Below, one piece after another: positions 38,674-45,009 of a stretch of 57,771 nt of DNA. Location of the stretch: the NCBI GenBank assembly GCA_964621955.1, contig CAZUMN010000004.1:1-57771 (forward strand), given 5' to 3'. A program made the position numbers and the translations under genes. The first letter of the stretch is position 1; each line of letters begins with the position of its first letter. The notes beneath the pieces were generated by a model. It was given only the letters and a program-made list of their open reading frames with translations, searched no databases and was not told where the DNA came from. The stretch is from an uncultured Thermococci archaeon (GTDB lineage Archaea; Methanobacteriota_B; Thermococci; Methanofastidiosales; Methanofastidiosaceae).

Positions 38674-39171
38674 TTATTTGCCGCAACCACAGCCACTAGA
38701 TGATCCTCCATCTCTTCCGCCACCAGCAGAATTACTAGTACTTAGCCCCATTGATTCAGTATCTAATGCAAATAACTTGGATATTTTAGTACTTACTGGG
38801 CCTTTTCCATCATTTGTTCTAAACCAATATTCTATATCCCATTCTTTTGCCTTTGGTGCAAATTTGAAAAGTTCATCTTCATACATCGGCAATACATACA
38901 ATATTCCATCCTTTGCATTATTATCAGTTATATCTGCTTTAATCATTTCTCTTCTTGACCCATTTATAAAGACAAACATATATCTAGGTGTATCTCCATC
39001 AGCGTCTTTATATTCTACTTGAAAATTATAAGAAAATGTGTTATTCTTGAAAGTGTACAAAAGAACTCCGTTTTGAAGTTCTGGAGAAGTATTTTCTGCA
39101 GCCAATATAGGGGAAACAAATAGAGATATCGCAAATATCAATGTTAATAAGACCATAATTATTTTATTCAT
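38674..39171 (-). CDS. Secreted hypothetical protein with Gly/Ser-CGCGK tail
   Basis: Signal peptide; YKDADGD; ends GGGRDGGSSSGCGCGK. Confidence 0.7.
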   Translation of the reverse strand: MNKIIMVLLTLIFAISLFVSPILAAENTSPELQNGVLLYTFKNNTFSYNFQVEYKDADGDTPRYMFVFINGSRREMIKADITDNNAKDGILYVLPMYEDELFKFAPKAKEWDIEYWFRTNDGKGPVSTKISKLFALDTESMGLSTSNSAGGGRDGGSSSGCGCGK

Positions 39172-39240: not shown

Positions 39241-39615
39241 CTATAGAAGTTTCAGATTTCCCACTATCTTATCAATTTCATCTTCTGGGGCTGGCCCTAT
39301 ACCTAAAACAGTGATTGTCCCAGGTGGTATTTCTGTTAATCCCGCATCTTTGATTAGTTCAGTTGTCAGGCCAACGCTTTTTGCCTCATTGAATACTTTA
39401 AGGAGTGAATCTAAATTATCAATCTTCAAAACAACTTTTTTTTGCCCTTCGGAAAACCATTCAGAAAAATATTTATTTTTGTTATTTTCTGATTTTATTG
39501 CACAACTTACTGCGGCATGCGCTACTTGAGCAGATAGTTTTCCTTTTGATAATTTCAAATCATCTCTAACAACAATTGCCATTTTATATTTAAATTTGTT
39601 AAAAAGGCCAAACAA
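39241..39615 (-). CDS. pth2: Peptidyl-tRNA hydrolase (archaeal Pth2)
   Basis: KGKLSAQVAHA, GQKKVVLK, DAGLTEIPPGT. Confidence 0.95.
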   Translation of the reverse strand: MFGLFNKFKYKMAIVVRDDLKLSKGKLSAQVAHAAVSCAIKSENNKNKYFSEWFSEGQKKVVLKIDNLDSLLKVFNEAKSVGLTTELIKDAGLTEIPPGTITVLGIGPAPEDEIDKIVGNLKLL

Positions 39616-40902
<1,287 letters not shown>

Positions 40903-42486
40903 TTATCTCGCCTCGTATTCAATATTAAATCCTTTTTTTATTATGATTGCCTTTTTCCAATTTTTATTCTCTTTTGGATAATCACTTCTATAATGGGCCC
41001 CCCTAGATTCTGTTCTTTCTAGAGCAGATATGGCTACAGCTTGGGCAACAAAAAGAATATTTCTTAATTTGAAGTATTCCAAATAATTTTGTGTTGTGTT
41101 TATCTTTTCAAATTTATTTTTTATTTCAGAGACCTCCTTGATTGCAGTTGTTATTCCTTCTTTGTTTCTAATAATCCCAAGGTATCTCCACATAATCTCT
41201 TTTATCTCTTTAATCAGTTCTTTTTCTGAAGAACTTTCAATAAGTTTAGGTAATGATTCAATATACTTCTTGGTATCTACGTAATCAAAATCATTTGCTA
41301 ACGCAAATTCAGATGCATTTTTTCCTGCAATTTCTCCAAACACTAAAGTTTCAGCTAAAGCGTTGCCTGCAAGCCTATTGGCCCCGTGTACGCCACCTGC
41401 AGTTTCTCCACAGGCGTATAACCCTTTGACATTTGTTTCACATTTATTATTTATTTTTAATCCGCCCATGAAGAAATGACATGAAGGTTTAACAAGAAGA
41501 TTATCTTTAGTTAGATCAATCCCTTTAGTTAAGAAAAACTCTAATTCTTTTGAATATTTTGTTTTAAGAATACTCTCAGGAACTTCTTTATATGATATAA
41601 AAACTCCACCGTCGATACCTCTGCCTTCAAGTGCCTCGGTGAAAATAGCTCTTGACATTACATCTCGAGTAGTTTTTTCTAAAAGGTTTGAATCATATTT
41701 TCCAATGAATCTTTCACCTTTACTATTAAGAAGAACAGCACCATCAGTAAAGATGAATGGTAAAACTAGATAGGATTTAAGTGCTACAGTGGGGAAAAAT
41801 TGTACATATTCCATATCTATCAAAGAAGCCCCAACATCTAATCCTAAGTAATATCCATCACCTTCAACATCGGAAGGATTTGTGGAATTTCTATAGATAT
41901 TTCCTGCCCCACCAGTTGCAATTATAATAGATTTAAATGAGATATCCAAAAAATTTTTTCCATCGCACACTATTCCGGATACAACTCTACCGTTCTTTTC
42001 AAAGAGTTTGATTAAATGCTTTCCTTCCAAAAATTTTATATCGTTATTTTTAGCATATTCCATTAGTTTTAATGGAATTATTCTCCCACACCCAGGGCCT
42101 GGTGGCTCTACTCTTACAGTTCGTGCAACTGAATTCCCACCGGATAGATTAAGGACAAAATTTCCATTTTCTTTTTTATATTGAATCCCAAAATCTTCAA
42201 GTGAAAGAATGGCGCTTTTTGTATTTTGAGAAAGAATTTTTGCTAATTTTGGGTCTGATACATTTGCTGAACCTTTCATTATGTCTTCATAATACAGATC
42301 AGAAGAATCATTTTCAGATAATGGCGCATTTAAAATTCCTTCAGAAATTGAACTGCATCCACCCTTTCCTACATATCCTTTGGTCAATATTATTACGTCT
42401 TTGACATATTTTTTAGATTCTATGGCGGCCCTTATCCCTGCAAGCCCACCGCCAACTACTAAGACATCACAATTTATCTTTTCCAT
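40903..42486 (-). CDS. FrdA/SdhA/NadB-family FAD-dependent oxidoreductase with altered substrate site
   Basis: GGGLAG, ATGGAG, HFFMGG, HGANRLAGN, ESRGAHYRSDYP. Confidence 0.88.
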   Translation of the reverse strand: MEKINCDVLVVGGGLAGIRAAIESKKYVKDVIILTKGYVGKGGCSSISEGILNAPLSENDSSDLYYEDIMKGSANVSDPKLAKILSQNTKSAILSLEDFGIQYKKENGNFVLNLSGGNSVARTVRVEPPGPGCGRIIPLKLMEYAKNNDIKFLEGKHLIKLFEKNGRVVSGIVCDGKNFLDISFKSIIIATGGAGNIYRNSTNPSDVEGDGYYLGLDVGASLIDMEYVQFFPTVALKSYLVLPFIFTDGAVLLNSKGERFIGKYDSNLLEKTTRDVMSRAIFTEALEGRGIDGGVFISYKEVPESILKTKYSKELEFFLTKGIDLTKDNLLVKPSCHFFMGGLKINNKCETNVKGLYACGETAGGVHGANRLAGNALAETLVFGEIAGKNASEFALANDFDYVDTKKYIESLPKLIESSSEKELIKEIKEIMWRYLGIIRNKEGITTAIKEVSEIKNKFEKINTTQNYLEYFKLRNILFVAQAVAISALERTESRGAHYRSDYPKENKNWKKAIIIKKGFNIEYEAR

Positions 42487-42495
42487 TTTATAATC

Positions 42496-44340
42496 CTACC
42501 TAAAACTAGCTCTTAAAGAAAGTCTTCTTGGTAGAGGTAAAGGTCTTGTTGGTTTTCCTTTAATAAGATCTAAGAAGCTAGCTTTGAATTCATTTACAGA
42601 AGTATTCTTCTGAGATGAATCTTCTCTAGATCTAATGTTAATTGTGGAATTCTTAATTTCGTCATCACCTATAACTATAATATATGGAACCCACTCTTTT
42701 TCAGCATCCCTTATTTTCTTACCAAGCCTCAAATCTCTATCGTCTATGTCAGTCCTTATTCCTGATTTTTCTAAATCTTCCAAGATCTTGAATGAGTATT
42801 CCAGTTGCTCTTCGCCTACAGGAAGAACCCTTACCTGGGTAGGCGATAACCACAATGGAAGCATTGGTTTCTTACCTTTCTTAGACTCTAAGAATGCTGT
42901 TTCAAGAAGTGCGTAAAGATTTCTCTCAATTGCACCTGAAATTGAAGCATGCAACATCAAAGGGTATTTTTCTTTTCCATCTTCATCAAAATATTTGATT
43001 TCAAATCTTTCAGTATTTTCTATATCAATTTGAACAGTTGAAAGAGCTGAAGCTTTATTTAATGAATCGACAAAATTAAACTCAAATTTCATCACGAAAT
43101 AGAATGGCCTTTCATCCCACATTTCAACTAAAACTGGCCTATTAATTAATGACATAAGCCTTTCCACAAATTCTGTATTTTCGTCATAAAATGATTTTAC
43201 AAATCTTATAGCAACTTCATAATTTAAATTAAGTCCTTCCATCCATTTCATTGATAATTTAAATTGTTCGATAAACTCATTCTTTGCACTGTCCATGGAT
43301 GTAGCAAGAGTATGCATATCTGGCATAGTAAAAGCCCTTAATCTTCTTAGGCCTACTAGCTCGCCCCTTTGCTCTCTTCTGAAGCTGTAACGTGTCAATT
43401 CGTATAATCTAAGTGGAAGATCTTTGTAAGAAATTATCATGTCGTGTTTCATGAGATATTGGCCAAAACATGCTGCAAATCTTAAGAAATAATCATCATT
43501 TCCCGATTTAACTATATATTGCCTTGCCGGAAATCTATTTAGGTACTTAGAAAGCATTGGATGAGTAATACTATACATTATCGGTGTTTCTACTTCCATT
43601 CCCCCGTATTCTAGTATGCTATCGTTAACTCGAGTTTCTAATAACCTCTTAATTAGAACACCTTTTGGGTACCACCTCAAATTTCCGGGGTCTGAACCTT
43701 TTTCATAATCAACAAGCTCTAAATTTTTCATGTATTCAACATGCGGTGGAACCATATCGACTTTTCTAGAGTGAGTAACTTCATATTCTGCTAATTTTTT
43801 GAGGCTATCATGATTTTTAAAATCAAACTTTTCTTGAGGTATAAGATTTAGGGAAGGGTCTAGTATATACCAGCTAGATTTAATTCTTTCTTCGGCTTTC
43901 AAAGCTTCAGATACGACCTCAGTGTCTCCTTGAGACTTAATACTCCTAGAAAGTTCAGATAGCGGGTGGCCTTTACAGGATACTTTAAAGGCTTTATAAT
44001 AACCAAAAGGTGCCCTTTTTACCTCATATTCTGTTTTTAATTTATTTTCTAAATCTTTCAATAATTTAATAGCTATTTCAGGAGGTGCAAGATTATTGCT
44101 TAAATGCGCATATGGATACAGAAAAACTTTATCTGATTTAACAGATTTTGATACTTCTGCAGCTTCATTAAATGCTTTATCAATTACAGAATCATCGTCA
44201 CCTTCTTCAACAGCAACGAAGACCGAAAGACAATCTTCCATTCTGCCTTTCTTTAAAGAATCTTCAATCTCCTCAGCTATTTTTGTCTTTGAAGTAATTT
44301 CATACTCTAAATAGTCACTATGTATTAAAAGAATCCGCAT
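42496..44340 (-). CDS. thrS: Threonyl-tRNA synthetase, archaeal type with N-terminal editing domain
   Basis: YPYAHLS, PFGYYKAF, CKGHPLSE, FRREQRGE, HASISGAIER. Confidence 0.97.
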   Translation of the reverse strand: MRILLIHSDYLEYEITSKTKIAEEIEDSLKKGRMEDCLSVFVAVEEGDDDSVIDKAFNEAAEVSKSVKSDKVFLYPYAHLSNNLAPPEIAIKLLKDLENKLKTEYEVKRAPFGYYKAFKVSCKGHPLSELSRSIKSQGDTEVVSEALKAEERIKSSWYILDPSLNLIPQEKFDFKNHDSLKKLAEYEVTHSRKVDMVPPHVEYMKNLELVDYEKGSDPGNLRWYPKGVLIKRLLETRVNDSILEYGGMEVETPIMYSITHPMLSKYLNRFPARQYIVKSGNDDYFLRFAACFGQYLMKHDMIISYKDLPLRLYELTRYSFRREQRGELVGLRRLRAFTMPDMHTLATSMDSAKNEFIEQFKLSMKWMEGLNLNYEVAIRFVKSFYDENTEFVERLMSLINRPVLVEMWDERPFYFVMKFEFNFVDSLNKASALSTVQIDIENTERFEIKYFDEDGKEKYPLMLHASISGAIERNLYALLETAFLESKKGKKPMLPLWLSPTQVRVLPVGEEQLEYSFKILEDLEKSGIRTDIDDRDLRLGKKIRDAEKEWVPYIIVIGDDEIKNSTINIRSREDSSQKNTSVNEFKASFLDLIKGKPTRPLPLPRRLSLRASFR

Positions 44341-44463: not shown

Positions 44464-45009
44464 ATGGAAGGAATTCTTGCGATAACTGGTGCAAGTGGAG
44501 TCATATACGGCATCAAATTGTTGGAAAATTTGAAAGGCAACGTACATTTAATTGTAAGTGAAAGTGCAAAGAAAATAATTAAGGATGAAACAAATTATGA
44601 GTTAGATAAATTAAATAAATATGCATACAAAGTATATAAAAATAGTGAAATGGAGGCCCCTGTTGCTTCGGGGAGCTACCCTTTTGATTATATGATTATA
44701 TGCCCTGCTACAATTTCAACTATTTCCAAGATAGCTGTAGGTATTCAAGATAATCTGATTACTAGAGCTGCAGCTGTATCCCTAAAAGAAAAAAGAAAAT
44801 TAGTTATTGTTCCACGGGAAACACCCTTGACTTCAATAAATCTAAAAAACATGGCAACTCTCTCTGACGAGGGCGCTGTTATACTACCTGCAATGCCAGC
44901 TTTCTACCACAAGCCAAAAAATATAGATGAAGTTACAAATTTCATAGTTGGGAGGATTTTAGATCAAGTTGGTGTAGAAAACAATTTATTCAAAAGATGG
45001 GGAACTTAG
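44464..45009 (+). CDS. ubiX: Flavin prenyltransferase UbiX
   Basis: ITGASG, ASGSY, VPRETP, PAMPAFYHKP. Confidence 0.94.
   Translation: MEGILAITGASGVIYGIKLLENLKGNVHLIVSESAKKIIKDETNYELDKLNKYAYKVYKNSEMEAPVASGSYPFDYMIICPATISTISKIAVGIQDNLITRAAAVSLKEKRKLVIVPRETPLTSINLKNMATLSDEGAVILPAMPAFYHKPKNIDEVTNFIVGRILDQVGVENNLFKRWGT

Follow-up and report, generated by a model that had tools for sequence, protein, structure and literature searches.

Within the superfamily that holds the flavoproteins of fumarate reductase (FrdA) and succinate dehydrogenase (SdhA) and L-aspartate oxidase (NadB), the roles of the substrate-site residues have been described for Fcc3: one carboxylate lies on Arg402, His504, and Arg544 (Motif I), the other on His365 and Thr377 (Motif II), and a proton path is formed by Glu378, Arg381, and Arg402 (Motif III) (bioRxiv 10.1101/2022.01.20.477176; PMC7921117). 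Three related enzymes differ at the distal His. It is a Tyr in the urocanate reductase UrdA, in which the exchange Y373H brings a gain of fumarate activity (PMC7921117); it is a Trp in the methacrylate reductase Mrd, which also has Val for the Thr (PMC4427408); and it is a Met in ARD, the NADH:acrylate oxidoreductase (acrylate reductase) of Vibrio harveyi, in which the proton path is reduced to the shared Arg (bioRxiv 10.1101/2022.01.20.477176). UrdA, ARD, and Mrd all keep the Arg/His/Arg contacts to the one carboxylate of their substrate, and protonation of the enoate falls to the catalytic Arg (UrdA: PMC7921117). Here, we compare with these enzymes a flavoprotein encoded at positions 40903 to 42486, on the minus strand, of contig CAZUMN010000004.1 (GenBank assembly GCA_964621955.1) from an uncultured Methanofastidiosum archaeon; the whole stretch analyzed, 57,771 nucleotides with a low G+C content of about 32%, is called the window below. 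Sequence comparisons place the flavoprotein, which is conserved and probably misnamed, in a large uncharacterized branch of the fumarate reductase/aspartate oxidase family.

Fold and substrate site of the flavoprotein

The open reading frame starts with ATG and encodes 527 amino acids. It matches the Pfam domains FAD_binding_2 (PF00890, 206 bits) and Succ_DH_flav_C (PF02910, 80 bits), with no extra domain, and an AlphaFold2 model made from a 42-row alignment had a mean predicted local distance difference test (pLDDT) score of 93.8. In a Foldseek search, the model gave a template modeling score of 0.89 to both E. coli FrdA (5vpn) and M. smegmatis Sdh1 (7d6v). The two domains, the four-domain fold, the catalytic Arg, and the His/Arg carboxylate clamp together place the protein in the FrdA/SdhA/NadB superfamily. 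Its dinucleotide-binding glycine motif for flavin adenine dinucleotide (FAD), VVGGGLAG, lies at 42436 to 42459 (this and all motifs given below are on the minus strand), and G12 and G14 in it are invariant in the alignment. At the position of the His that links FAD in FrdA and SdhA (RSHT; His44 of FrdA), the protein reads GGCSS (42349 to 42363), with G43 and C44 and no His, and the FAD is therefore presumably bound noncovalently.

The substrate site was mapped with a MAFFT L-INS-i alignment of the flavoprotein, 70 relatives, and E. coli FrdA, SdhA, and NadB (NC_000913.3), in which FrdA residues carry their literature numbering. On the proximal side, R274 in the motif TTRD (41662 to 41673) corresponds to the catalytic acid/base Arg (FrdA R287, Fcc3 R402) and is invariant in both alignments of relatives; H337 in CHFFMGG (41461 to 41481) corresponds to the proximal-carboxylate His (FrdA H355), the HFF being common to the noncanonical subfamily described below; and R371 in GANRL (41371 to 41385) corresponds to the proximal-carboxylate Arg (FrdA R390). 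On the distal side, F231 in QFFPT (41788 to 41802) takes the place of the distal-carboxylate His (FrdA H232), and L242, P243, and F246 in LVLPFIFTDG (41740 to 41769) stand at FrdA T244, E245, and R248, just downstream of a hinge with a 5-residue deletion. The pocket Phe of FrdA, F116, is replaced by S115 (42142 to 42144), which turns FGG into SGG. A clade-specific loop, PPGPGCG (42085 to 42105), is 3 residues longer than the DRTGH/DKTGF loop that it replaces and holds Cys133 and Ile136; it is the loop that bears Glu121 in NadB, and the flavoprotein has Ile at the Glu121 position. Cys133 was considered as a catalytic thiol and rejected, as it is not conserved in the deepest member of the clade (P0029). 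HMMER alignments to the PDB chains 7d6v and 1chu gave identical substitutions.

Read with the residue roles in Fcc3, the alignment indicates that the flavoprotein keeps the proximal clamp and the catalytic Arg and has lost the distal-carboxylate site and the proton relay. The original prediction, made from the DNA letters, had pointed to QFFPT, LVLPFIFTDG, and the retained Arg/His/Arg motifs, and each of these was located by translation and mapped on E. coli FrdA. It had also stated that the four replaced residues bind one carboxylate, which holds for His232 and Thr244 but not for Glu245 and Arg248, which form the proton relay to the catalytic Arg; its conclusion stands. It had missed the change from F116 to S115 and the membership in a large unnamed branch.

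Twenty-one orthologues from two families show 74 to 97% identity within the genus and 49 to 61% identity in the sister family. S115, F231, L242, P243, F244, F246, R274, H337, F338, and R371 are invariant across all 21, and the pairwise ratios of nonsynonymous to synonymous substitution rates (dN/dS) range from 0.06 to 0.12. These low ratios, together with the invariance of replaced and kept residues alike, argue for a maintained active site and not for decay. All homologues with at least 50% identity are labeled Methanofastidiosa or Methanofastidiosum. Among the species-level genomes, all 14 of the same genus (family f1) and 6 of 7 of the sister family (f3) carry an intact orthologue; none was found in families f2 and f4 of the order or family f5 of the class, whose matches are only 30 to 38% identical. 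McrA was found in 15 of 16 genomes of f1, in all 7 of f3, and in none of the 6 of f2 or the 4 of f4, and within the order the orthologue and McrA occupy the same two families. Families f1 and f3 may share a single ancestor, and this co-occurrence therefore counts as one observation.

Comparison with named enzymes and the noncanonical branch

The flavoprotein scores below every curated NCBIfam cut-off. The best-scoring family was TfrA (NF004900), with 488.3 bits and a cut-off of 718; the SdhA/FrdA profile (TIGR01812) gave 333.3 bits (cut-off, 567.3), the NadB profile (TIGR00551) 325.7 bits (cut-off, 452.75), and the flavocytochrome c profile (TIGR01813) 185 bits (cut-off, 285). The flavoprotein is like TfrA of the Methanothermobacter/Methanobacterium type in being archaeal, in having the same four-domain fold and length with 39 to 44% identity, and in lacking the covalent-FAD His, with a Cys at the equivalent position in both. 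However, proteins named TfrA by NCBI (Methanobacterium spp. and Methanococcus aeolicus) keep QFHPT, LVTEAVRGEGG, FGGQ, and DRTGH where the flavoprotein has QFFPT, LVLPFIFTDG, SGGN, and PPGPGCG, and they fall on the opposite side of the main split of the tree described below; this comparison set was defined by NCBI name, and the biochemically characterized Methanothermobacter TfrA itself lies outside it.

The sister family provides a further comparison. An operon of fumA and fumB (fumarate hydratase alpha and beta), a TfrA-like gene, and TfrB (genome G044, locus L039:2248-6943) encodes a TfrA-like protein with a score of 683.9 bits and a TfrB with 445 bits, above the cut-off of 385. The TfrA-like gene beside TfrB keeps the His/Thr/Glu/Arg residues, and the same genomes also carry the paralogue with the hydrophobic pocket, so that the clade represents a separate paralogue and not the lineage's own TfrA. 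In the genome from which the window comes (85% complete), no TfrB (NF004898) was found above the cut-off, and weak matches occurred only in a cluster on contig C16 that has its own flavoprotein. This second SdhA-like flavoprotein (C16:8.6-11.5 kb; L001:1291-4151) has 549 amino acids and the canonical His/Thr/Glu/Arg; its N terminus is extended by about 95 residues, and it lacks Succ_DH_flav_C. It is followed by a 228-amino-acid SdhB-like 2Fe-2S/4Fe-4S protein and a 171-amino-acid HdrB/SdhE-like CCG protein, and a fumarase fragment lies at C16:17455-17757. Judged by these features, the C16 cluster is probably the real thiol- or Hdr-type fumarate reductase of the genus, and it is a better candidate for fumarate chemistry than the flavoprotein at 40903 to 42486.

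NadB (TIGR00551; PDB 1chu, 1knp, 5kxj, and 2e5v) resembles the flavoprotein as a stand-alone, soluble protein with noncovalent FAD and about 30% identity over the full length. It differs in the aspartate site, where its His244, Thr259, Glu260, Arg263, and Glu121 are Phe, Leu, Pro, Phe, and Ile in the flavoprotein. None of the 16 Methanofastidiosum genomes, which include one assembled as a single contig, yielded quinolinate synthase NadA (PF02445), and it was matched in 12 of 14 control genomes; the other families of the order have it in 6 of 6 (f2), 6 of 7 (f3), and 3 of 4 (f4) genomes. With no NadA found in the genus, an aspartate oxidase would have no use there, and Methanofastidiosum is probably unable to make NAD (nicotinamide adenine dinucleotide) de novo from aspartate. 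The SdhA and FrdA proteins of complex II differ by a covalent-FAD His and by adjacent genes for SdhB/FrdB and an anchor, none of which is present at this locus.

UrdA (PDB 6t85 to 6t88) and Mrd, which are proven nonfumarate enoate reductases, share with the flavoprotein an aromatic residue at the distal His and the retained proximal contacts and catalytic Arg. They differ in being periplasmic, in their flavin mononucleotide (FMN) or cytochrome partners, and in belonging to another subfamily; UrdA also keeps the second Arg, and its similarity to the flavoprotein (E value, 1e-21) is in split segments. ARD, too, keeps Motif I, has a bulky apolar residue for the Motif II His, and has Motif III reduced to the shared Arg, and this is the pattern that the flavoprotein shows. 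It differs in belonging to the flavocytochrome-c-type branch, where its donor domains are FMN_bind and old yellow enzyme (OYE) like and Succ_DH_flav_C is missing, and in retaining the Motif II Thr. A residue comparison with the published enzymes thus finds in the flavoprotein the signature of UrdA, ARD, and Mrd, with Motif I kept and the Motif II His changed to a bulky apolar or aromatic residue; by its domains, Succ_DH_flav_C present and no FMN_bind, OYE, or cytochrome c module, it stands outside their subfamily. The original prediction that a fumarate reductase or NadB name is probably wrong is thus supported by the scores below cut-off, the residues of the TfrA-named proteins, the TfrAB operon of the sister family, the absence of NadA, and the differences seen in UrdA, ARD, and Mrd. 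We consider it likely that the flavoprotein is neither a fumarate nor an aspartate enzyme.

When 1.84 billion cluster representatives were searched exhaustively with HMMER, the clade itself was represented by a single full-length cluster at 50% identity (P0019), and the next match was 41% identical. The next 150 representatives were mostly noncanonical, reading QF[YF]P, the hinge, and then ..F..GA. Both the His232 and Arg248 equivalents were gone, with Arg/His/Arg kept, in 103 of the 147 nearest full-length 50%-cluster representatives. An alignment with the named families and a tree had been proposed as a check on the prediction; both were run, and they show canonical residues in the TfrA-named proteins and the clade on the noncanonical side. 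In the maximum-likelihood tree (78 rows, quick search, LG+G4), a split with a Shimodaira-Hasegawa-like approximate likelihood ratio test (SH-aLRT) value of 100 separates FrdA, SdhA, NadB, and TfrA, with a few odd rows, from 44 noncanonical rows that include the Methanofastidiosales clade. A tree in which the clade is constrained to group with TfrA is worse by 70.7 log-likelihood units, with a P value of 0.039 in the approximately unbiased (AU) test. The clade and the branch have in common the HFF, the Phe at Arg248, the aromatic residue at His232, and the loss of the Phe of FGG, and these shared derived characters support placement of the clade in the noncanonical branch.

Members of the branch carry the names "FAD-binding protein," "FAD-dependent oxidoreductase," or, by automatic naming, "fumarate reductase subunit A," and none of 8 members tested reached an NCBIfam cut-off. 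A literature search for work on the branch found no paper, and a look-up in the ESM Atlas returned generic family names only. In a family-wide motif scan of genome contigs, the best 80 loci were mostly canonical SdhA, NadB, and TfrA; about 12 of the 80 were noncanonical, none of them close to the clade. Unnamed SdhA-fold proteins from Bathyarchaeia, Clostridia, and others (P0124, P0128, P0133, and P0039) are like the flavoprotein in the aromatic residue at His232, the Phe or Leu at Arg248, the HFF, and the Arg/His/Arg core. They differ in that they are only 33 to 41% identical to it and that some have downstream a 2Fe-2S-only SdhB fragment, which is absent beside the flavoprotein. The Methanofastidiosales clade is set off from the rest of the branch by SGG, the PPGPGCG loop, Cys instead of Asn in the His44 region, and the 5-residue hinge deletion.

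The surroundings of a few noncanonical loci were also recorded, and we treat them as anecdotal evidence. Two loci from Clostridiales and Oscillospiraceae (L050:6980-9024 and L121:2625-4673) have a distant noncanonical SdhA-fold gene followed by a gene for a protein of 105 to 122 amino acids with only Fer2_3, the 2Fe-2S N-terminal domain of SdhB; both loci adjoin arginase-family and aminotransferase genes. In the cultured organism Desulfoscipio geothermicus DSM 3669 (L051:1909-8536), a noncanonical flavoprotein gene (QFHPAVAL...APFADGA) lies directly downstream of a PrpR_N-type sigma-54 activator gene and near genes for a canonical SdhA, a Fer2_3 protein, and a DUF1847 protein. In a metagenome-assembled genome of a Dehalococcoidia bacterium (L070:40-3044), the noncanonical flavoprotein gene comes right after a gene combining OYE (Oxidored_FMN) and Pyr_redox_2 domains, of the clostridial 2-enoate reductase/dienoyl-CoA reductase type.

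Gene neighborhood

The flavoprotein gene is one of four closely packed genes on the minus strand, in the order thrS, flavoprotein, purA, and pth2. The thrS gene (42496 to 44340) encodes an archaeal threonine--tRNA ligase (NF003068, 865 bits; cut-off, 484) with the archaeal editing domain PF08915. The purA gene (39616 to 40902, apparent TTG start) encodes adenylosuccinate synthase (NF002223, 572 bits; cut-off, 402), and pth2 (39241 to 39615), the last gene of the run, encodes the peptidyl-tRNA hydrolase PTH2 (PF01981). The thrS stop codon TAG is followed by 9 nucleotides and the ATG of the flavoprotein gene, whose TAA immediately abuts the TTG of purA, with a GAGG motif a few bases upstream of that start. 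The junction sequence thus agrees with the gaps of 9 and 0 nucleotides given in the original prediction, which was also right that there is no covalent-FAD His (G43/C44) and no adjacent Fe-S subunit: no Fe-S gene adjoins the flavoprotein gene at this locus, where the neighbors are thrS and purA. In two relatives, the flavoprotein and purA genes overlap by one base.

The order thrS-flavoprotein-purA-pth2, with a wider block from DUF7121 to a NifB-like gene, is kept in the 4 genomes of the genus that were inspected. In the sister family, the neighbors of the orthologue are an aldo/keto reductase gene on one side and a SIMPL/DUF541 gene on the other, and other genomes place it next to a gene for an aminotransferase or a PAS sensor. 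Because the order is shared only inside the genus, the thrS/purA "housekeeping operon" carries no functional information, and the link to it that had been predicted was not borne out. A functional connection to purA, through the release of fumarate by PurB and the use of aspartate by PurA, was rejected for the same reason, that synteny ends at the genus boundary. Divergent from thrS, a gene for a UbiX-family flavin prenyltransferase lies at 44464 to 45009 of the window on the plus strand (241 bits; cut-off, 109), an arrangement that is kept in the genus. Archaeal UbiX serves the mevalonate pathway, and this role, plus the genus-level linkage, led us to reject the gene as a pointer to an acrylic-acid decarboxylase pathway. 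Downstream of pth2, an open reading frame of 165 amino acids (38674 to 39171, minus strand) has no Pfam or NCBIfam match and is found in the same place in 4 genomes of the genus, with 62 to 78% identity.

Proposed reaction and its alternatives

We propose, with a probability of about 0.4, that the flavoprotein may act as a stand-alone oxidoreductase for a monocarboxylic 2-enoate. It would be a functional, soluble, single-subunit flavoenzyme with noncovalent FAD and the full four-domain FrdA/SdhA/NadB fold, and its substrate would consist of one carboxylate and an apolar remainder. In the chemistry usual for the family, hydride transfer would link flavin N5 and the beta carbon, and proton transfer would link Arg274 and the alpha carbon; the outcome would be reduction of a 2-enoate like acrylate, crotonate, or methacrylate, which might bear a thioether or a longer apolar tail, or the reverse dehydrogenation. 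As has been proposed for UrdA, solvent and not a relay would bring the protons to Arg274. No gene for an electron donor or acceptor adjoins that of the flavoprotein.

Several points weigh against the proposal of a 2-enoate oxidoreductase. The host is a strict anaerobe and the flavoprotein stands alone, with no donor module, which leaves one half of the reaction to be explained, and the contexts inspected in the genus and in the sister family hold no conserved neighbor that hints at a substrate or an electron partner. ARD, Mrd, and UrdA sit in the flavocytochrome-c-type branch, which lacks the Succ_DH_flav_C domain and has built-in donor modules, so that the likeness to them is convergent and not one of membership, and the branch to which the clade belongs is without a biochemically characterized member. 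The AU test rejects a TfrA origin only marginally, for a group that was defined with the tree already in view. Finally, the size and polarity of the pocket are deduced from the alignment alone.

The same scaffold might instead serve other monocarboxylate chemistry, either oxidation of an apolar alpha-amino or alpha-hydroxy acid (C-N or C-O) or a flavin-N5 adduct as in the alpha subunits of adenosine 5'-phosphosulfate (APS) and 3'-phosphoadenosine 5'-phosphosulfate (PAPS) reductases. We consider this unlikely, although the family already spans C-C, C-N, and N5-adduct chemistry (matches to NadB, AprA, or PAPS reductase) and the Arg/His/Arg trio would also bind an alpha-carboxylate. Aminotransferase genes adjoin the orthologue in one sister-family genome and the noncanonical relative at L121, but neighbor evidence of this kind is anecdotal; moreover, there is no acidic residue at the Glu121 position of NadB to hold an amino group, the similarity to AprA/PAPS reductase is much weaker (E value, 1e-21), and no AprB-like gene is adjacent. 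Confinement of the orthologue, within the order, to two McrA-bearing families and the report that the genus reduces methylated thiols to methane (PMC7382037) would fit an enzyme linked to methanogenesis and acting on a large or special carboxylate, such as a thioether acid derived from methylated-sulfur substrates [3-(methylthio)acrylate or 3-(methylthio)propionate], a precursor of coenzyme B, or a propionate side chain of an F430-type tetrapyrrole. That distribution may, however, reflect one evolutionary event in related families. The orthologue was not found in other methanogens, where the next matches are canonical TfrA with at most 44% identity, and no cofactor-biosynthesis or methyltransferase gene is a conserved neighbor, which makes such a role distinctly improbable.

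The three remaining readings stay closer to the names in the databases. The flavoprotein could be the organism's TfrA after all, with an Fe-S/CCG partner from another locus, in the manner of the unlinked tfrA and tfrB of Methanocaldococcus, and with the distal carboxylate held by other residues. TfrA is its best NCBIfam match, public pipelines call its relatives "fumarate reductase (CoM/CoB) subunit A," it adjoins purA, whose pathway releases fumarate, and a classical TfrAB operon is missing from the genomes of the genus. Yet the score lies far under the cut-off, the Motif II and proton-relay positions are all apolar and invariant, the sister family has a real fumA-fumB-tfrA-tfrB operon besides the orthologue, and the genome itself has in C16 an SdhA-like gene with canonical residues, SdhB-like and CCG subunits, and a fumarase fragment nearby; with the clade placed away from TfrA in the tree and the purA linkage limited to the genus, we find a TfrA identity very improbable. 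A decaying or noncatalytic relic of a fumarate reductase would explain the loss of four canonical active-site residues but is hardly credible given the dN/dS values, the invariance of the FAD motifs, of R274, H337, and R371, and of the replacement residues across 21 orthologues down to 49% identity, the intact frame in all of them, and the confident fold model. An L-aspartate oxidase making iminoaspartate for NAD synthesis, beside the aspartate-using PurA, would account for a stand-alone protein with no covalent-FAD His and for matches to PDB NadB chains with E values down to 1e-56. The score below the NadB cut-off, the replacement of five aspartate-site residues, and a distribution in which the genus has the flavoprotein (14 of 14 genomes) and no NadA (0 of 16) while families f2 and f4 have NadA and no flavoprotein leave this reading next to no chance.

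The 2-enoate proposal can be carried further. The clade might be the Methanofastidiosales representative of widespread stand-alone SdhA-fold monocarboxylate enzymes of anaerobes, serving the substrate chemistry of methyl-thiol-reducing methanogens; for example, the release of methylated sulfur compounds could also yield acrylate or 3-(methylthio)acrylate, whose reduction would offer an additional electron sink or provide the methyltransferases with 3-(methylthio)propionate. We regard this extension as speculative and quite unlikely.

The finding offers a sound lead for enzyme discovery and for annotation; it does not amount to a new kind of system. Public labels on the protein and its relatives include "fumarate reductase (CoM/CoB) subunit A," "L-aspartate oxidase," and "succinate dehydrogenase flavoprotein," and reconstructions that trust these labels would credit uncultured methanogens and other anaerobes with a step from fumarate to succinate or with de novo NAD synthesis that they probably lack. 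The signature of a kept proximal clamp, an apolar distal site, and a lost proton relay offers a simple rule for flagging such proteins, and it marks a large branch with no characterized member, to which at least about 100 of the 147 nearest representatives of 50%-identity clusters belong. Identifying the substrate of a single member would make the rest of the branch accessible, and in Methanofastidiosum an unrecognized electron sink or substrate-conditioning step could come to light.

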